Below, piece after piece: positions 4,913 to 45,867 of a DNA stretch of 46,785 nt; within the stretch, counting starts at the first letter, position 1; every line of letters starts with the position of its first letter. The DNA is from a phage: NCBI GenBank assembly GCA_029337695.3, contig GCA_029337695.3_4851.1; one strand, written 5' to 3'. Under the pieces are notes generated by a model that saw only the letters and a program-made list of their open reading frames with translations, ran no database searches and was not told where the DNA came from. Both the position numbers and the translations under genes were made by a program.

Positions 4913-7289
4913 TGGCTGAAGAAGTCGGCGGAATTGTCTATGAAGTCGGGATGGATGTTAAAGGCCTGAAAGCTGGCGCGACAACAGCCAATAAGACTTT
5001 AGATGACCTTGAATCATCAACCAACAAAACCACAAGCGCCCTTGGCAAGCTGGATAAAAACGCCAGAAATGCTGGCAGCGGAATGAAAAATGCTGGCGGC
5101 GCAGCTTCAGGGCTAAAAACCAGCCTGTCGATGCTGGCTGGCGCAATATCCGTGTCACTGATTATCGAATGGGGAAAGCGATTCCTTGAGGTTGCAGATA
5201 ACATGACGCAGCTTCAGGCAAGGATTGCTCGCCTGTCAACTGACGCAAAAACCGCGAACGAAACATTCAGCTCACTGGCAAATATCGCCTCAACCACTGG
5301 CGCAAGTCTCAGCGACACCACGAAGCTGTGGGAAACATTGACGTCATCACTGAAAGAGGCTGGCGCGACAAATGCGCAGATTCTTAACCTTACAGATACC
5401 CTGCAAAAAATAGGTCGAATTGGCGGGTCATCAACCGAAGAAATGGCGAATGCATTACGTCAGTTCGGTCAGTCAATAGCATCTGGCACAATCCGCGCAG
5501 AAGAGTTCAACTCCATCCTTGAGCAGATGCCTGAACTTGCACGCCAGATAGCCGCTGGGCTTGGCATTTCAATGGGTGAACTTCGGGCCAGAATGCTTGA
5601 CGGAAAATTGACGGCAGAAGATGCACTAAATGCCATTCAGGACAGGACAAGCGTCGTTAATGCTGAGTTCGCAAAGCTACCGCGCTCTATATCTCAGGCG
5701 ACTGGCAGTCTTGAAACATCATTTGCAAAAATGATAGCAAGCATAAACGAAGCAACTGGAGCCAGTTCTACCTTTGTTTCAGTTATTGACTCTATTACCT
5801 CAGCAATCAACAGGCTAACTGGTCAGACCATAGGTGCGGCAGAGGTTATTTCTGATTTGACGTCAACTGCCGAAATGTTCAGTCGCAGAGCGAGAACTTG
5901 GTCATGGGTCGGCATTGACGGATGGGCGGCACAAAATCAGGCAATAGCGGCGGTAGCAAATCAGGCTGCAACTTTGGTATCAGACATGGATGCTGTCACC
6001 AAATCGACAGGGGAGGCAGCAAAGGCGCAAGCGCACTTGACAGTGCCAAAAGCAGCAGAGAAAGAGAAAAAGAAAAAAGCAACAGGCAAAAGCGCCGAAG
6101 AACGACAGGCTGAGTCAGTTGCTGAAAAGCTGGAGAAATTACGCCAGCAAACCATGCTCAATGCCACATCTACCAGCGAACTATCCCGCGAGCAAGCAAT
6201 TCTCAACGCGCAGCAATCGCTTGGCAAAGCTGCCACTCAGGAGCAAATAAAACTTGCTGGCGAGTACGCTGCGAAGATTTGGGACCAGAAGAATGCACTG
6301 AAGGAGCAGGCAGAAGCGGAGAAGGAAAAGCAGCGCATAGAAAAATCATATCAGGGGTTGCGCGCTATTGCGTCACCAACGACTGGCATTGACAGTGAAT
6401 ACCAGCAACGCATGGCTGACCTTGATGCCTACGCCGCAGCATATCCGCAGAAAATTACGGAGATTGAGCAGACTCGCGCAGCAATTGAAGCACAATACCG
6501 CCAGCAGCGAATGGACGCCATGTGGGCTGAGTGGCAGCAACAAAGCCTAGGTGCGCAACTGTTCGGTACCGCTCTTGATTCAGCAATGAGTACGGCATCA
6601 AACAGCATCACCGGATTGCTGACAGGCACAATGAGCGTTCAGGATGCCATGCGCAGTCTCGGCTCTACGGTGCTGAACTCTCTGGTAAACAGTTTCGTCG
6701 AGATGGGCGTGCAGTGGGTAAAATCTGCCGTTATGGGACAGACTGCACAGGTTGCGGCTACGGCAACCACAACGGCTGCGCAAACGGCAGGGCTGGCAAC
6801 AACAACAGCAGCATCGACGGCGGCAGCAGCCACCACCACGGCGGCATGGACTCCAGCGGCAATCGTGGCATCAATCGGTTCATTCGGTGGTGCGGCCGCA
6901 ATTGGTGTAGGCGCTGTTCTCGGGGCGCTGGCAATGGGTGTCGCTGGAAAGCGAAAAAATGGCGGCTCAGTTAGTGCCGGAAGTATGTACGAAGTTGGCG
7001 AGGGAAACGCACCAGAAATATTCCAGGCCAGCACAGGCAGGCAATATATGATACCTGGCAATTCAGGTAAGGTTATCAGCAACAAAGACATTACCGGAAG
7101 TGGCAGTGGCTTGATTATAAATAATAATGTTTATAATAGTTCAAGCGGAGCAACAGCAACTACCAGCGCCAGAGATAATGGTGACGGCAGCGTGACAATT
7201 GAGACGATTGTGAGTGATATTTCGGAAAATGGCCCAATAGGGCAAGCCATTTCAAGAAACTACAATACCAACAGGAGAGCAACCGAATA

Positions 7290-14084: not shown

Positions 14085-14594
14085 TCAGAAGGGAATATCG
14101 TCTTCGAAGTCCATCGGCGGCTCATTTACTCCTTGTGTGCTTTGCTGTTTTGGTGGCTGCTGCTGTTGTTGATTTGTTACACATCCGCCTTGAGGTTGTT
14201 GGCCTGATTGCTGGCGTGGTTGTTGCTGACCAGAATCATCACGCTTACCACCAAGCATCTGCATGACTCCGCCCATCTGTGGGATAACAATCTCAGTGGT
14301 ATATCTGTCTACGCCGTTGCTGTCAGTCCACTTACGAGTGCGTAGCTGGCCTTCTATATAAACCTGAGAACCTTTGCGAAGGTATTCTCCTGCAACTTCC
14401 GCAAGTTTCCCGAATATTACCACGCGATGCCATTCAGTCTGTTCTTTCTTTTCTCCTGTTTGCTTGTCTTTCCACTGCTCAGATGTTGCAACAGAAAGGT
14501 TGGCAATTGAAGAGCCTGATGCTGAATATTTAACTTCAGGGTCGTTACCAACTCGACCAAGGATTATGCACTTATTAATACCAATCGAAGACAT
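14085..14594 (-). CDS. ssb: single-stranded DNA-binding protein
   Basis: OB-fold-like N-terminus, Gln/Pro/Gly-rich linker and acidic C-terminal tail ending DDIPF. Confidence 0.85.
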
Positions 14595-15112
14595 TACTTG
14601 AATCTCCCGTTTTTATCTCTTAATCTGCCATTATGATTCTCTGTGGCGTGTAATGATGCGTGCTCTGACTTCGTCATAAGCATTAGGTTACTTGGATGGT
14701 TGTTTGTTTTATCATGGTCTATATGATGAACGCATTCATTGTGAAACAACCTCCTCCCAATAATGCCTTCCATAACTACGACATGCTCTCCTCTTCCTTT
14801 GTTTTCACCCATAGTTATCTCGACATAACCATTCGGTTTTACAGAGCGACCCTTGCCAACTCCTTTCTTTGATTTTGATATATTTTGCTTCCATTCTTCA
14901 GTAAACTTTCGTTTTTTACCCCTAAGTCCTGAACCAAGTCTTCCCTCTGCGGCAGCAATTCTTATTGCATCTCCTCTGCTTCTCAATATTCCGGCTTTCT
15001 TAAATCTAAACCTCAATGTTGACATGGCTATTCCTGTTTCATTGGAGATTTGAGGGATGCTCATGCCAGACAAATACATATCAAACTCATTCATATGCAC
15101 CTCCTTGTGCAA
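14594..15112 (-). CDS. HNH homing endonuclease with N-terminal HTH
   Basis: C-terminal [27 protein letters not shown]; inserted between ssb and erf. Confidence 0.75.
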
Positions 15113-20252: not shown

Positions 20253-20667
20253 ATTCCTTGAACTCTGGCGCTTCAGGCCAGAAGGCTATATTTCGCAGCG
20301 ACTTACCTGTGTGATTGCACCAGTATATTCCTGAGTCATCATACTTGGCAGTAACCTTGACGCGATCAGCATCAATAATAACAACCTCCTGTCCATCTTT
20401 AGGATCGAAAAGACGCGCATCTTTCCAGTTAGCAATCTCATTAAGGGAAAGAAGGACATAACCAGGAAGATAAGCGCCGACATCAGCGATGTGAACTATA
20501 GTTCTCTCTGTTCTCTCTCCTGTGTAGTCTCCATTCCACTCATAAAGAATGATCGCGTCTCCAATCTTAAAGTCACGGTCATTCTTTCTTAGTTCCGCCT
20601 TCTTGTGTCCGGTAACTACAGGCCAGAAGTGTTCAGGTAATATTTTAAGTTCGTGTGTTTTGCTCAT
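20251..20667 (-). CDS. DUF3850 (ASCH/PUA-like) domain protein
   Basis: N-terminus THELKILPEHFWPVVTGHKKAELRKNDRDFKIGD matches the DUF3850 signature; coupled to the upstream 530-aa gene. Confidence 0.6.
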   Translation of the reverse strand: MSKTHELKILPEHFWPVVTGHKKAELRKNDRDFKIGDAIILYEWNGDYTGERTERTIVHIADVGAYLPGYVLLSLNEIANWKDARLFDPKDGQEVVIIDADRVKVTAKYDDSGIYWCNHTGKSLRNIAFWPEAPEFKE

Positions 20668-22259
20668 TACAACCCCCTCATAAATCTCATGCGCTTAACG
20701 GCAGCGGAAAGATAATTTCTAACAGTTGAGTTCATCCGCAGACCATCCCATGAACCATCACTACACATCTTAATTGCTCTTGGATTATCCCTGTCCAGCA
20801 TTAGTGGTGAATGTTTGTTCTCCTCAATAGCAAGGAGAACTTCATAAACAAATTTATCCGGCGTTAATGTGATGTTGTTCGAGTCAGCAGAATTGATTAT
20901 CTTCTCAACTCTGTCACGGCACAGCTTGTTCTTTATAACAGACAAGTAAGGCGTTTTAATGAATGCCTGTGATTCACAAATTCGCTTTATTTTTTCAACA
21001 ATATTCGACCACTCAGTATTCTCAAGCCCATCAAATGCCTGTTCACCCTCAAGGAATCTTTTCAGCCCCGAGAGGTGTTCAAGAACAGTGAGATAACCCC
21101 ACTCGATATGCTCCGTCGTAACTGATGGTGTCATTCCCTGACGACTTGACAGATCGGTATACGCCGCCAGAGTTGCAAGATCGACAATCATTAGACCCAT
21201 GCGAGGGATAACATCACCAACAACACCATCGCAATCACCAAGCTCACTTTCCAGTTTCATGGACAGAGATCTGTGCAGTTTTTTCGCATTATCATCAGCC
21301 CATACAACGTTAGTTTTCGCGGTAAGAACCCTACCTTTCCACTCATTGATTATTTTTCTTGAAAGCGTACCACTCACTTCCACATCCTTCATCGCTGGCA
21401 TTTCCTCACCAGCAAGATGCCCAAGCTGGAACAGTACGCGCCCCATACCGCCATCTTTCTGCCATGAACGCGCAGCATCTATTCCCTGCTCTGGCGTGAC
21501 AGTAATCAGCGGAACAAATTTTGCGTTTTCAATTCCACCGTCTTTTGTTGCAATTTCGTACTCATTCATTGCCGACTTTAGCGCTCTCCCAACGCTGTGG
21601 TCCATCATCGCAAGGCGCTTATAATCTATGACTCCTTTCCCATCATCGCCACCAGTAAGTGGCACTATCCATCCCTCAGCACTTGCTGCAGCCATGATGC
21701 GTTTTGGGTTTTGTTCCCACGTAAGGTTTTCAAGCAACTCCTTGATTATTGGTCTGTTAGGAACCCACACGCCGCCATCAGTTAGGCCTCTATACCACGC
21801 CATAGTACCGCCAAGATATGCATTGCGCGGGTTGTTCCAGTCTTCAAGATGTTGCTTGTCATCGTTAACAACGTAGAGCAAAGACCCGCCTCCAGCAATC
21901 AGGTCCAACTGCATCTGTTTCGTCGAGGTTGATTTGGATGCGCAAACTCTGGACCCTATTCCCAGTGCATTGGCATATGCCCTGACGAAACTCACCGGGG
22001 CGCCCTTACCTGCACCAGAGCGAGCTACCAGAAATATGCCAGTATTGCAGATACTACCTGTTGGACCAATCAAGTATCGTCCAGCCATCGCCTGAGCAAG
22101 ACCCAAAGCGCCAGTTAAACGATATCTTCCCCCGCCCTCACGGCGCTCAAACCCCCTTGCGATCTCATCCATAAACTCACCAAGTGCACCGGGAGCCTCC
22201 CGCTTTATGCCCATAGCCAGAGACTCAAAATCAATTGAACTCATCAATACACCCTCCAT
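20667..22259 (-). CDS. large hypothetical protein with degenerate P-loop-like motif
   Basis: 530 aa; VARSGAGKGAP (Walker A-like but Gly at the S/T position) and LLYVVNDDKQ (Walker B-like); no family recognised. Confidence 0.5.
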   Translation of the reverse strand: MEGVLMSSIDFESLAMGIKREAPGALGEFMDEIARGFERREGGGRYRLTGALGLAQAMAGRYLIGPTGSICNTGIFLVARSGAGKGAPVSFVRAYANALGIGSRVCASKSTSTKQMQLDLIAGGGSLLYVVNDDKQHLEDWNNPRNAYLGGTMAWYRGLTDGGVWVPNRPIIKELLENLTWEQNPKRIMAAASAEGWIVPLTGGDDGKGVIDYKRLAMMDHSVGRALKSAMNEYEIATKDGGIENAKFVPLITVTPEQGIDAARSWQKDGGMGRVLFQLGHLAGEEMPAMKDVEVSGTLSRKIINEWKGRVLTAKTNVVWADDNAKKLHRSLSMKLESELGDCDGVVGDVIPRMGLMIVDLATLAAYTDLSSRQGMTPSVTTEHIEWGYLTVLEHLSGLKRFLEGEQAFDGLENTEWSNIVEKIKRICESQAFIKTPYLSVIKNKLCRDRVEKIINSADSNNITLTPDKFVYEVLLAIEENKHSPLMLDRDNPRAIKMCSDGSWDGLRMNSTVRNYLSAAVKRMRFMRGL

Positions 22260-23429: not shown

Positions 23430-23615
23430 ATGAAAGAGGAAAGCACGTACGACATCGACCAGATGAAGTTGTTCAGCGATATATGCATGGCATTGTCACA
23501 ACAGGTTCCAAGCCTTCCTGCTGACACGCGTTCAAATGCCATCATTGATGCAGCAAACATGATTTGCGAGGCTTATGCGATGAGTGAAGATGAATACAAG
23601 GCTTTGAAGAAATGA
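23430..23615 (+). CDS. hypothetical early protein
   Basis: 61-aa ORF, first of a coupled series of small ORFs. Confidence 0.4.
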   Translation: MKEESTYDIDQMKLFSDICMALSQQVPSLPADTRSNAIIDAANMICEAYAMSEDEYKALKK

Positions 23616-42843: not shown

Positions 42844-43692
42844 ATGGCTGTAAGATACGACATATTCACCACGCGGGATGACGGCGAGGTGACGCTTGAC
42901 GAGCTGATGTCCGCTGACTGGACTGCGCTACAGGTTAACGTGATGCCACTTGATTCATCTGGTGCATACACGCCACTGGTTAGCGGAACCGTGTCCGTGA
43001 AGGTGTCGCCATTTGAATATGGCAACTACTGGATTGACGTCAACAATAATAATTATTACGGCGTGGCATTGCGCCTGAAGATAATCAAAACTGAATTGCC
43101 AGCAGCAGTAAGCTCGCTGCGCGTTTCGGTCTGGCGAGCTGGTGTGTCTCCGCAATCGGTAGTAAACCTTCAGCCTGATGTGGCACTAAGCGACATCACC
43201 ACGCAATCATATATTGAGCGCGCTAACAAGCAAGGCAAGCTGTTCACTGCGTCGCGCAGAGTAACTGATGTCGCTGGCAGCTCAAGCCTTGACAGTATCT
43301 TTATCACCGGAACAAAGCAGGTGATATTCAATCAGCGCATTATTGGTTACACAGGGAAAGGTGTTGTTGCATCAATCTATCGCGGCGCAGTTGCCACTGG
43401 CGGCACTGCTGCGGAGATTAATAATCCCAACGACATAACGCCACAAGCAGCTACGGCGCAGTTAATCACTGGCGCTACCGTGACAAACGTCGGGCAGCTG
43501 ACGGTAGCAGCGACATATAGTGAGGGTAACGCATCGAATCAGGGACAGGGTAACTCTCAGGCTCGATTGGGTGAGCAAATTATCATGGCACCAAACACAA
43601 CGTATCTGCTCCGCATAACATCACTGGATACTGCGGTGCAGAATATCAATGCTTACGTTTCATGGTTTGAGGATGATACTTATCTGGCGTGA
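42844..43692 (+). CDS. putative virion structural protein
   Basis: About 283 aa from MAVRYD..., Ser/Thr/Gly/Val-rich beta-type composition, near the capsid genes. Confidence 0.4.
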   Translation: MAVRYDIFTTRDDGEVTLDELMSADWTALQVNVMPLDSSGAYTPLVSGTVSVKVSPFEYGNYWIDVNNNNYYGVALRLKIIKTELPAAVSSLRVSVWRAGVSPQSVVNLQPDVALSDITTQSYIERANKQGKLFTASRRVTDVAGSSSLDSIFITGTKQVIFNQRIIGYTGKGVVASIYRGAVATGGTAAEINNPNDITPQAATAQLITGATVTNVGQLTVAATYSEGNASNQGQGNSQARLGEQIIMAPNTTYLLRITSLDTAVQNINAYVSWFEDDTYLA

Positions 43693-43695
43693 TAA

Positions 43696-43722
43696 AATAA
43701 AAGCCCCTTCCGGGGCTTTTGA
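43696..43722. terminator. bidirectional rho-independent terminator
   Basis: AAGCCCC-ttcc-GGGGCTT flanked by A-run and T-run between convergent genes. Confidence 0.8.
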
Positions 43723-43725
43723 TTG

Positions 43726-44262
43726 CTACAGACGCATAGGCATAACAACAATCTTCGCAGTCTCGCCAGTTGGCGCACTAAGACAGCAAACTGCGGCATT
43801 TGTGTTTCCATTCAATTCAAACTTAACGACACAGAATTTAGGGTTAAACAGCTTGGCCACTTTCTCAACATCAACAAGATAGCCAGCATTGAAGCCGATT
43901 TCCTCTGTTGGCGAGGTCTGCTTCGGAATGATGCGGTCAATATCCGGGAATCGTCCGTCAATCTCTTCGCAGATACCAGTGCCAACCATCACGCCAGCTT
44001 CATCATGATACGTTGCAATTTTCGACTTTGTATCAATAATGGCGTAGTCATAGCGTTTTGTCGGAGACTTGCCAATCTTGATAATCACATTTTCTGTCAG
44101 CTTATTGTCATGACTGCCACCAATGAATGCGCGACGACCGTCAGTTGATGCAATACGACCATCAGGCATAAAGCAGATGCCGTTCAGGTAGTAACGCACA
44201 TCATTGCGCGCCTGAAATATTAATGCTGACTCAAGTAATAATTTGCTGATTTTTAGTTTCAT
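43726..44262 (-). CDS. truncated beta sliding clamp (DnaN) homolog: domain II plus C-terminal part of domain III
   Basis: 178 aa from the ATG. ARNDVRYYLNGICFM, ASTDGRRAF, IDGRFPDIDRIIPKQ, EIGFNAGYLVDV and C-terminal KIVVMPMRL parallel E. coli DnaN blocks QDVRYYLNGMLFE, ATDGHRLA, DGRFPDYRRVLPKN, EIGFNVSYVLDV and YVVMPMRL (from memory); no domain I. Confidence 0.7.
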   Translation of the reverse strand: MKLKISKLLLESALIFQARNDVRYYLNGICFMPDGRIASTDGRRAFIGGSHDNKLTENVIIKIGKSPTKRYDYAIIDTKSKIATYHDEAGVMVGTGICEEIDGRFPDIDRIIPKQTSPTEEIGFNAGYLVDVEKVAKLFNPKFCVVKFELNGNTNAAVCCLSAPTGETAKIVVMPMRL

Positions 44263-44434
44263 CACTTCACCTTAATCATGTGTTGTTTTGCAACCTTCAG
44301 GCATTCCTCAAAAATGCCTCCCTTCTTTGCGCTCTGATTGCGCTTGTAATACTGAATTGCCGCATCAATTGCCATCTGGTCGATATCTGGTAGCTTAGCG
44401 CGCAGTTGTTTTTCGATGAATTGTTCTGGTGTCA
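44262..44434 (-). CDS. small hypothetical protein (57 aa)
   Basis: MTPEQFIEKQLRAKLPDIDQ...; ATGA overlap with the clamp-like gene. Confidence 0.35.
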
Positions 44435-44650
44435 TTGAGTTATCCTTGTGTCTAATTGAGATTTGTAAAACAAATCAATACTTCCAAATGCTTTGTATTC
44501 AAATTTACCATTTTCGCGGCAAACCCGCTTTTCAAACCCATAATTGTCATTATTTGCCGTCCATGTTGTCACAGATAAGAAACCACTAGCCTGGACTATT
44601 GCGCCATTACCATCCCTGTCGCCGAACTTTATAATTTTGTAACGCATCAC
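44432..44650 (-). CDS. hypothetical protein
   Basis: 72-aa ORF coupled between the ParB-like and downstream genes. Confidence 0.4.
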   Translation of the reverse strand: MMRYKIIKFGDRDGNGAIVQASGFLSVTTWTANNDNYGFEKRVCRENGKFEYKAFGSIDLFYKSQLDTRITQ

Positions 44651-45456
44651 ATCTTCTCCAGAATTGCCATAACCTCGTGAATGTCAGCAACAGGAATCTG
44701 GATAAACTCCTCATCCTCAGCCACCACATGACCAGCAGGAAGAATCACGTGATCTGCTTGCTTCAACAGCTCAATCAGGCGGTCTACTGGCTTAATCTTT
44801 TTGGACTTCAGCACTTTGGCTGTGACCTTATCCTTGCCTTGCGCCTTCGCTTCCTCGACTGCCTCGTCGATAACTTTAACCGCATCATCGCCATGTTCGC
44901 GCGTTACCGCTACGGCGTTTGCATAGCTGATTTGCCCTGCACTGATTCGTGCCTTCACTTCCGCTGGCAAATCACCCAATGACAGGTGCATTTGCACGTC
45001 AGATACTGAGCGACCTACCTTCTTAGCGATTTCCTCATTAGTCCAGCCAAAGCCTTTCAGTCGCGTGTAAGCCTTTGCACGTTCAAACGGGTCGAGCTGC
45101 TTGCCCTGGCTGGATGACACCATGAAGGCAATTTTATCCGCCTCATCGCCAGTGAAATCTTTGCACTCAATGCGAACGATTGGTGCGCCACGCTCAATGG
45201 CACGCAATGCGCCGAGATAGCGGTGCTGACCATCAAGAATGCGAATTCCCTTCTCGTCTGGAATAACTGTTAATGCTGGTAGTGGCTGGCCTGATTCCCA
45301 GCACTGCGCAAAATATTCAACGTGTTGCTCATCTGCTTCACGGATGTTGTATCCCGGCTCCAGATAAATTTGCTCCACTGGTACGAGATAGGTTTTGTTT
45401 ACCGCAATGCCGTTGCGCGTCTCTTTGTCTGAATAGATTTTGCTGAGTGTTTTCAT
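44647..45456 (-). CDS. ParB-like N-terminal domain protein with HTH
   Basis: ParB-box-like IRILDGQHRY and HTH segment WTNEEIAKKVGRSVSDVQMHLSL. Confidence 0.7.
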   Translation of the reverse strand: MKTLSKIYSDKETRNGIAVNKTYLVPVEQIYLEPGYNIREADEQHVEYFAQCWESGQPLPALTVIPDEKGIRILDGQHRYLGALRAIERGAPIVRIECKDFTGDEADKIAFMVSSSQGKQLDPFERAKAYTRLKGFGWTNEEIAKKVGRSVSDVQMHLSLGDLPAEVKARISAGQISYANAVAVTREHGDDAVKVIDEAVEEAKAQGKDKVTAKVLKSKKIKPVDRLIELLKQADHVILPAGHVVAEDEEFIQIPVADIHEVMAILEKM

Positions 45457-45815
45457 TGTTTCTTTCCTAATGCTTTATTGATAGATTCTTCAGCTAACAG
45501 CAATTCTTCTGGGTATTGTTCATTCCAGTTTTGTTTGTATGCTTTGTTAAGCATTTTTTGCAGAGCTTCAAGCAACTCAGGTGCCGCCGCCATTAAATTA
45601 AAATCATGCTCAACACTGCCATCAATCTCCCAATGCATCCCGTTGTATTTGGCACCCTTACTAGAGAAGGCGATGTTTCTGTCATCGTCATAGTGACAAC
45701 CAGGCGTGTCATCAGCTCTACAAGACGGGTAAACCGCTGCGCAACCACCGCGAATATCTGCAACCCACGGACCGGGCGTGCCTTTAAATTCTTTCATCTC
45801 CATCACCTCTAACAT
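45453..45815 (-). CDS. conserved phage protein, paralog of 33273-33587
   Basis: Shares MKEFKGTPGPW ... AAAPELLEALQ ... KALG blocks with the 104-aa protein at 33273-33587. Confidence 0.5.
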   Translation of the reverse strand: MLEVMEMKEFKGTPGPWVADIRGGCAAVYPSCRADDTPGCHYDDDRNIAFSSKGAKYNGMHWEIDGSVEHDFNLMAAAPELLEALQKMLNKAYKQNWNEQYPEELLLAEESINKALGKKQ

Positions 45816-45821
45816 TTATTG

Positions 45822-45867
45822 TTGCTTCTACGTCACTAACTATAAACGCCACATCAATCTACGTCAA
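45822..45867 (+). promoter_or_regulatory. divergent promoter region with two AATCTACGTCA motif copies
   Basis: TTCTACGTCAC (45822-45836) and CAATCTACGTCAA (45855-45867) between divergent operons. Confidence 0.45.

Follow-up and report, generated by a model that had tools for sequence, protein, structure and literature searches.

The Mini-Clamp Gene and Its Homology to DnaN

The window considered here is a stretch of phage DNA of 46,785 nt (contig GCA_029337695.3_4851.1 of GenBank assembly GCA_029337695.3) and comprises the whole ~46.8-kb genome of a siphovirus. This genome shares ~91% DNA identity with Salmonella/Klebsiella phage IME207 (Shuimuvirus), Shigella phage Sf11, and the Escherichia phages swi2, C1, and Bas77-80, which the BASEL paper groups as Skatevirus and relatives (PMC11990801). 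Its minus strand carries an open reading frame (ORF) of 178 aa at 43726..44262, running from an ATG at 44262 to a TAG at 43726-43728, whose product is homologous to part of DnaN, the bacterial beta sliding clamp, and is referred to here as the mini-clamp. An alternative GTG start at 44265, one codon upstream of the ATG, would yield a product of 179 aa. Based on alignments and the secondary structure of a predicted model, the protein is composed of two parts: residues 1-114 (43921..44262, minus strand) correspond to domain II of DnaN (beta ~128-250), and residues 115-178 (43729..43920, minus strand) correspond to the second half of domain III (beta ~309-366).

A phmmer search of all PDB chains with the mini-clamp returns enterobacterial beta clamps with E values of 1.4e-11 to 5e-10. 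One aligned segment places query residues 8-154 on beta 136-288, and a second stretch places residues 119-179 on beta 312-366. Among family models, DNA_pol3_beta_3 of Pfam (PF02768) matches with an E value of 0.005 (17 bits vs. a curated cut-off of 27) and TIGR00663 with an E value of 2e-7 (30.1 bits vs. a cut-off of 137.65), and the Pfam models for the N-terminal and central domains of DnaN have no match to the protein. By the curators' cut-offs, the mini-clamp would not be classed as a DnaN, which is defined as a three-domain protein of ~366 aa. A comparison with the PADLOC models, which cover known anti-phage defense and anti-defense proteins, gave no family at E<=0.01.

Global and profile-guided alignments agree on the division described above, with 37% identity to E. 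coli beta over 159 aligned positions. Identity is complete in two blocks: DVRYYLNG, equivalent to beta 150-157, and VVMPMRL, equivalent to beta 360-366. Two segments of beta have no counterpart in the mini-clamp, namely residues 1-127 (domain I) and residues 251-308 (~58 residues of domain III). An AlphaFold model of the monomer, built from a 136-sequence alignment, has a mean predicted local distance difference test score (pLDDT) of 97.1 and a predicted template modeling score (pTM) of 0.91, and the top 50 PDB matches found with this model by Foldseek are all beta clamps, with E. coli beta filling the leading ranks. From this confidence and these matches, the pieces of the clamp that remain are predicted to be arranged as in native beta. 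The model lacks the second helix of domain II (beta ~197-209).

The dimer interface of beta is formed by Ile78, Arg103, and Phe106 of domain I together with Ile272, Leu273, Glu298, and Glu304 of the first half of domain III (PMC11139829). In the alignment, all of these residues fall in the segments deleted from the mini-clamp. The second half of domain III is probably the half that abuts domain II in beta, in which case the mini-clamp would represent a contiguous ~90-degree arc made of both halves of domain II and the adjoining half of domain III. This arc would be exactly the region that builds the client-binding pocket, with both ring-closing edges gone. Given that the deletions remove domain I, the first half of domain III, and with these the dimer interface, the alignment implies that the mini-clamp cannot form or join a normal three-domain ring.

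An earlier reading of this DNA, made from the letters alone and referred to below as the sequence-only reading, had described the gene as a truncated DnaN homolog without domain I and unable to act as a normal three-domain ring subunit. The phmmer, profile, and Foldseek matches bear out the homology, the lack of any counterpart to beta 1-127 bears out the missing domain, and the 178-aa length and deleted interface bear out the loss of ring formation. Its estimate of ~45 missing residues in domain III was too low, as the alignment gives ~58 in addition to one helix of domain II.

Conservation of the Client-Peptide Pocket

The pocket of E. coli beta into which client proteins insert their binding motifs consists of two subsites. 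Subsite I comprises R152, L155, T172, G174, H175, R176, L177, P242, R246, V247, V360, and M362, and subsite II comprises H175, N320, Y323, V344, M362, P363, M364, and R365 (PMC11139829, a 2024 review). The equivalent residues of the mini-clamp are R23, L26, T40, G42, R43, R44, A45, P106, R110, and I111 on the domain II part, and N125, Y128, A156, V172, M174, P175, M176, and R177 on the half-domain III part. All 18 pocket positions are aligned, with 14 of the 18 identical to beta in this protein and 16 of the 18 identical in the family consensus, so that the retention of the pocket proposed in the sequence-only reading is upheld.

Conservation was computed on 136 aligned family members, with columns mapped to E. 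coli beta. The mean column entropy is 1.23 bits for the pocket vs. 2.74 bits for all other columns (Mann-Whitney p 1e-7), and pocket residues account for half of the 20 most conserved columns (10; hypergeometric p 7.6e-7), making the pocket the most conserved part of the family. Set against an overall identity of only 37%, this pattern argues that selection has specifically preserved the docking site across the family.

The copy encoded in the window departs from beta at two notable positions of subsite I. Arg43 stands at the equivalent of His175, where most relatives have His, and Ala45 stands at the equivalent of Leu177. The arginine is a minority variant, present in 11 of the 120 closest clusters. 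In beta, His175 bridges the two pocket subsites (PMC11139829).

Predicted Self-Association

Since a lone half-domain would be expected to expose its core, self-association of the mini-clamp was modeled. The tandem AlphaFold construct consisted of a first copy, a linker with a scrambled peptide, a second copy, and a linker with the peptide QLDLF, and was run with a 25-row paired alignment. The resulting model has a pTM of 0.73, despite 83 of its 440 residues being disordered linker; copies left unplaced relative to each other could hardly give a pTM above ~0.45. Strands 121-125 and 145-149 form in both copies at the edge of the truncated domain, whereas the monomer model shows no strand assignment there. 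The tandem model also aligns 205 residues, which is more than one copy, to the beta clamp of T. maritima (1vpk_A) at 3.4 A. Taken together, the pTM, the new edge strands, and the length of this alignment suggest that two half-domains pair across a dyad and rebuild one clamp-like domain. The predicted product is a symmetric, open arc with three domain equivalents and two pockets.

Transcription Unit

The mini-clamp is the last gene of a leftward unit of ~2.1 kb, which consists of five ORFs with overlapping stops and starts and runs antisense to the head and tail genes around it. A putative sigma70-like promoter, TTGACG-17-TATAGT, is located at 45839..45867 (minus strand) and is assigned from its consensus match alone (10/12 positions). 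The first gene of the unit is a 120-aa ORF of family phrog_1273 (45453..45815, minus strand), followed by a ParB-like protein of 269 aa that combines an HTH_ParB domain with a DGQHR motif (44647..45456, minus strand). Next is a 72-aa ORF without a family match (44432..44650, minus strand) that overlaps both neighboring ORFs at its start and stop. Directly upstream of the mini-clamp is a 57-aa ORF (44262..44435, minus strand) belonging to phrog_4439, a family of unknown function. The TGA of this 57-aa ORF overlaps the ATG of the mini-clamp (…AAG TGA TG AAA…), an arrangement that indicates probable translational coupling of the two genes.

Directly after the mini-clamp stop, a G+C-rich hairpin, AAAAGCCCC-GGAA-GGGGCTTTT, with a T-rich tail (43699..43720, minus strand) has the form of an intrinsic terminator. 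It is the single hairpin in the interval 43695-43725, which separates two convergent genes: one on the plus strand that ends at 43692, and the mini-clamp, which ends at 43726. A-runs and T-runs flank the hairpin on both sides, and it may be a bidirectional terminator that also serves the plus-strand gene. The sequence-only reading had credited the mini-clamp with an operon of its own. A unit bounded by a predicted promoter and terminator is indeed present, but the gene is the last of its five ORFs and does not stand alone.

The ParB-like neighbor, which matches HTH_ParB and KorB models, carries its DGQHR motif within ILDGQHRYLGALRA and has a weak match to TIGR03187. This motif is typical of DndB-like proteins associated with DNA modification. 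Among close relatives of the phage, a DNA methyltransferase gene is often inserted between the ParB-like gene and the mini-clamp.

Family, Selection, and Annotation

The mini-clamp belongs to a large family. An HMMER scan of 1.84 billion cluster representatives (50% identity) yielded 1385 proteins at E<=1e-3, and most of the 150 with the best scores (132) fall between 165 and 225 aa in length. In the phage collection, 262 records have a match, with hosts that include Salmonella, Escherichia, Klebsiella, Vibrio, Burkholderia, Proteus, and Pantoea. The closest genes, in IME207, PJN025, and Bas78-79, are 90-94% identical. Plasmids gave 15 weak matches, and those inspected were prophage early regions or full-length dnaN genes. 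The median ratio of nonsynonymous to synonymous substitution rates (dN/dS) against 40 relatives is 0.10, and the mini-clamp is a working gene under purifying selection.

The protein matches the PHROG 3007 profile over its full length (E 6.5e-63), with residues 2-179 aligned to positions 1-186 of a 190-position profile. It is therefore a full-length member of that family, from which it shows no structural difference, and it carries the minority His-to-Arg change noted above. PHROG 3007 and RefSeq label the family as a RusA-like Holliday junction resolvase. A Pfam search of the mini-clamp found no RusA family at E<=10, and the label appears to be wrong. The homology itself is already known, as many GenBank records describe such proteins as "DNA polymerase III beta subunit" or "sliding clamp", for example in Skatevirus/Shuimuvirus, Dhillonvirus, Kagunavirus, Gorganvirus, and other phages. 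A full-text search of PMC and bioRxiv, with incomplete coverage, found no functional study of the family.

Members of the family are mildly basic, with a median isoelectric point (pI) of 8.3 vs. 5.25 for beta. Conserved Lys/Arg residues at positions 19, 134, 137, and 142 lie on or beside two helices that line the channel in beta. In some distant members (P0227, P0249, and P0252), the C-terminal MPMR is followed by an acidic tail of 20-30 aa; this contains a conserved P-(E/G)-W-(Y/F)-T-G-P motif and may be an extra interaction peptide. Another member, P0260 (318 aa), is an intermediate form in which domain III is complete and the N-terminal domain is short; its architecture suggests a stepwise reduction from a full-length phage DnaN.

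Gene Context in Other Phages

The genomic setting of the mini-clamp varies considerably with the kind of phage. In ~29 lambdoid loci from IMG/VR, whose mini-clamps are 46-58% identical, the order is a divergent S24 repressor, a cro-like gene, a cII-like gene, the mini-clamp, Phage_rep_O, and DnaB or a DnaC-like loader, such that the mini-clamp opens the lambdoid replication module. In Vibrio phage PVP-XSN, it is directly upstream of a Dam methylase and a single-stranded DNA-binding protein (SSB), and in Pantoea phage LIET2 it comes after a helicase and a VRR-NUC nuclease. This link to replication modules outside the present phage is strong, and neither it nor the predicted self-complementing dimer was foreseen in the sequence-only reading. 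Two enterobacterial prophages carry it in the early-left operon beside Rha/ORF6N genes, near xis/int in one of them. The gene stands alone and antisense among the structural genes of Kagunavirus and Gorganvirus.

Dhillonvirus members (EP23, WF5505) also have the mini-clamp antisense, inside the head module and adjoining Nmad5. In Shigella phage EP23, this neighbor is EP23p07 (5601-6365, plus strand), which has an Nmad5 domain (PF18757, E 2e-58). A point mutation in Nmad5 allows a Dhillonvirus to escape the Tmn defense, and the gene is toxic to clone (PMC11846954).

A survey of neighboring genes covered 88 loci, which collapse to 11 sequence groups. No neighbor gene is universal across these loci, and the best neighbor cluster spans four groups. 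Neighbors are instead lineage-specific, and include ParB plus methyltransferase, Nmad5, O/DnaB, and SNF2-type helicase genes. The idea that the mini-clamp is carried only by phages lacking a polymerase was rejected, as Kagunavirus fFiEco03 has a family-A polymerase.

Replication Genes and the Search for Ligands

The replication and recombination genes of the genome in the window encode an SNF2-type helicase, a second P-loop protein, a DnaG-type primase, SSB, Erf, an exonuclease VIII homolog, and HNH nucleases. No DNA polymerase gene was found in this genome, and none is annotated across the whole IME207 genome. The phage therefore presumably relies on host DNA polymerase III (Pol III).

Two of these genes merit a further comment. 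A 530-aa protein at 20667-22259 (minus strand) has Walker A- and Walker B-like motifs (GAGKG … LLYVVNDD), but no Pfam or NCBIfam match and only a weak match to a PHROG described as "DNA primase". It is labeled "DNA helicase" in IME207, and can be regarded as an uncharacterized replication ATPase. An HNH homing-endonuclease gene lies at 14594-15112 (minus strand) between the SSB and Erf genes, and the number and position of HNH genes vary among relatives of this phage.

Phage proteins carrying a clamp-binding motif would be candidate ligands of the mini-clamp. A scan of all ORFs in the window for this motif gave counts at chance level; matches in the 530-aa P-loop protein and in ParB are inside folded regions. 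Across the 88 loci, no cluster of neighbor proteins has a conserved terminal clamp-binding motif, and none was found in the polymerase, helicase, or primase of a Kagunavirus. No conserved motif was thus found in neighboring or replication proteins, and the ligands of the mini-clamp are more likely to be host proteins.

One short accessory protein is of separate note. A 61-aa ORF at 23430-23615 (plus strand) begins MKEESTYDIDQMKLF… and has QMKLF, which resembles a clamp-binding motif, near its N-terminus. Homologs have QMALF in phage sortregn and QIALV in N15 gp42. It could serve as a ligand, either for the host clamp or for the mini-clamp, or simply mark the start of a helix.

Proposed Function and Alternatives

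We propose that the mini-clamp is a non-ring, pocket-bearing decoy or adaptor that binds the clients of the host clamp off the ring and thereby sequesters or redirects them, and we assign this reading a probability of about 0.5. On this view, the 1.5-domain derivative of beta would be expressed from a host-type promoter as an accessory factor in phage DNA replication. Its retained pocket would be the one into which polymerases, the clamp loader subunit delta, Hda, and MutS/MutL insert a motif of the QL[S/D]LF type. The exposed half-domain would pair with its equivalent in a second copy to give a two-fold open arc with two pockets. This arc would bind clamp-binding motifs of host proteins away from the ring, and competition with the host clamp would leave clients sequestered or redirected during phage replication. 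The proposal starts from the homology, the fold, the retained and lost parts, the family-wide conservation of the pocket, the purifying selection, and the anatomy of the transcription unit; what we infer beyond them is that the protein binds peptides and dimerizes, which clients it binds, and how the phage benefits.

Several points weigh against this proposal. If the alpha subunit of host Pol III or delta were sequestered indiscriminately, a phage dependent on that polymerase would suffer. The family is also found in phages with their own family-A polymerase, and a single role for all members is not obvious. As for the model itself, the dimer comes from one linker-tethered AlphaFold run with a 25-row alignment, and the tethered QLDLF peptide in that run had a pLDDT of 39 vs. 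27 for the scrambled control, both being disordered, an outcome that is neutral on peptide binding. The basic pI and conserved Lys/Arg residues would also fit a DNA-bound role. Finally, client specificity of this particular copy may differ owing to the substitutions Arg43 and Ala45, since the His175 replaced by Arg is the residue that bridges the two subsites.

The most credible alternative is a positive one, in which the pocket captures host Pol III (through the alpha/epsilon motif), the loader subunit delta, or Pol I/ligase, and hands it to the helicase-primase or origin complex of the phage, such that the host replicase is recruited to phage DNA and not inhibited. This is possible, if on balance doubtful. 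It would suit a phage that, like the one described here and IME207, has helicases, a primase, and SSB but no polymerase that could be found, and would suit the early-right operon of lambdoid phages, where the gene directly precedes an O-type initiator and DnaB/DnaC-like genes. The predicted two-pocket dimer could also bridge two partners. Against it, no conserved partner gene was found across the 11 sequence groups sampled (four at best), and neither its neighbors nor the helicase, polymerase, and primase of a Kagunavirus have a conserved terminal clamp-binding motif. Phages with a polymerase of their own also carry the family. Moreover, a mini-clamp occupying the motif of the alpha subunit would be in competition with the true clamp, on which the polymerase depends.

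A different kind of function, and an unlikely one, is that of an open clamp that is placed on DNA without a loader and tethers a polymerase, either as a dimer arc resembling UL44/UL42 or as a D2 tetramer ring of 12 half-domain units. The tandem model resembles the arc of a beta monomer, as seen in its pTM and its alignment to 1vpk_A. The raised pI of the family and the basic residues on or near the channel-lining helices point in the same direction. In geometric terms, four copies of 1.5 domains would supply 12 half-units, as in the beta dimer. Against this, one of the three half-units is without its channel-lining helix, the two pockets of a dyad dimer would face opposite sides, and the phage polymerase that was examined has no clamp-binding motif.

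The sequence-only reading had also raised the prospect of a poison subunit, in which the mini-clamp would use the normal ring interface to form a heterodimer with host DnaN and inactivate the host clamp. Homology to DnaN lends this idea some appeal, but it is very improbable, as the deletions take away the beta-beta interface on both sides (PMC11139829) and self-pairing is predicted to satisfy the exposed half-domain.

A RusA-like resolvase, for which the PHROG 3007 description and RefSeq product names speak, or a decaying fragment of an acquired dnaN can be dismissed for practical purposes, given that Pfam returns DNA_pol3_beta_3 and no RusA, that all sequence and structure matches in the PDB are sliding clamps, and that, in keeping with the rejection of a random remnant in the sequence-only reading, dN/dS is ~0.10, length is conserved over >130 diverged clusters, the model pLDDT is 97, no frameshifts were seen among relatives, and the gene has a predicted promoter, a predicted terminator, and coupled starts.

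Comparison with Known Systems and Implications

The closest known relative of the mini-clamp is E. coli DnaN itself (P0A988; 1MMI, 2POL), with which it shares homologous sequence and the same client-pocket residues. The two differ in size (178 vs. 366 aa) and in that the mini-clamp is without domain I, the first half of domain III, one channel helix, and the dimer interface. In addition, the mini-clamp is mildly basic whereas DnaN is acidic, and its gene is carried by phages, either inside replication modules or among head-tail genes as an antisense gene or cassette.

A natural short form of beta has reportedly been described in E. coli by Skaliter, Paz-Elizur and Livneh (J Biol Chem, 1996). 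This UV-inducible protein of ~26 kDa, beta*, is said to arise by initiation at a start codon within dnaN and to function as a clamp, probably in trimeric form. Like the mini-clamp, beta* is a natural N-terminal truncation that has lost domain I and kept the pocket. Unlike the mini-clamp, which is without half of domain III, beta* has that domain complete and its ring-forming edges intact. The mini-clamp is furthermore a separate gene family under its own selection, with predicted self-pairing through the broken domain.

Clamp folds that do not close into a ring are also known from the herpesvirus processivity factors UL44, UL42, BMRF1, and PF-8. These have two full PCNA-like domains per subunit, bind their own viral polymerase and DNA directly, and have neither a sequence relationship to DnaN nor a QLxLF pocket. 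Phage strategies aimed at the clamp and its client network are represented by Gp168 of phage Twort (PDB 7EVP) and MuC of phage Mu, whose over-expression is described as perturbing the control of host initiation (PMC12867686). Both are ligands of the host clamp, whereas the mini-clamp inverts this arrangement by copying the receptor site. A full-text literature search, again of incomplete coverage, found no functional study of a phage receptor-mimic of the clamp pocket. Features of the mini-clamp that appear to be new are the excision pattern, which leaves an arc with the whole pocket and neither ring edge, the focus of conservation on the pocket, the predicted self-complementing dimer, and the position between cII and O in lambdoids.

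These features raise the tentative suggestion that the mini-clamp represents a new architectural class: a self-completing 1.5-domain subunit, possibly a D2 tetramer, which would act as a loader-independent pocket platform in lambdoids, Skatevirus-like phages, and Dhillonvirus siphoviruses, and hijack the client network (Pol III, delta, Hda, MutL, Pol I/ligase) at phage forks. If so, the phage ligands already known for the clamp would have a counterpart that mimics the receptor.

One consequence is a matter of annotation, as the "RusA-like resolvase" label propagated through RefSeq and PHROG should be corrected, with hundreds of phage genomes affected. If binding of client peptides is true, the mini-clamp would offer a compact, non-ring, and probably soluble pocket module for biochemistry and inhibitor screening, and a handle on the capture of Pol III by polymerase-less phages. 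It would also show how a clamp domain can be split and then rebuilt by dimerization. The pocket of beta is a hub that coordinates polymerases, the clamp loader, Hda, mismatch repair, and ligase, and is a target for antibiotics. A widespread, pocket-only phage family under strong selection implies that this hub is manipulated from the receptor side.

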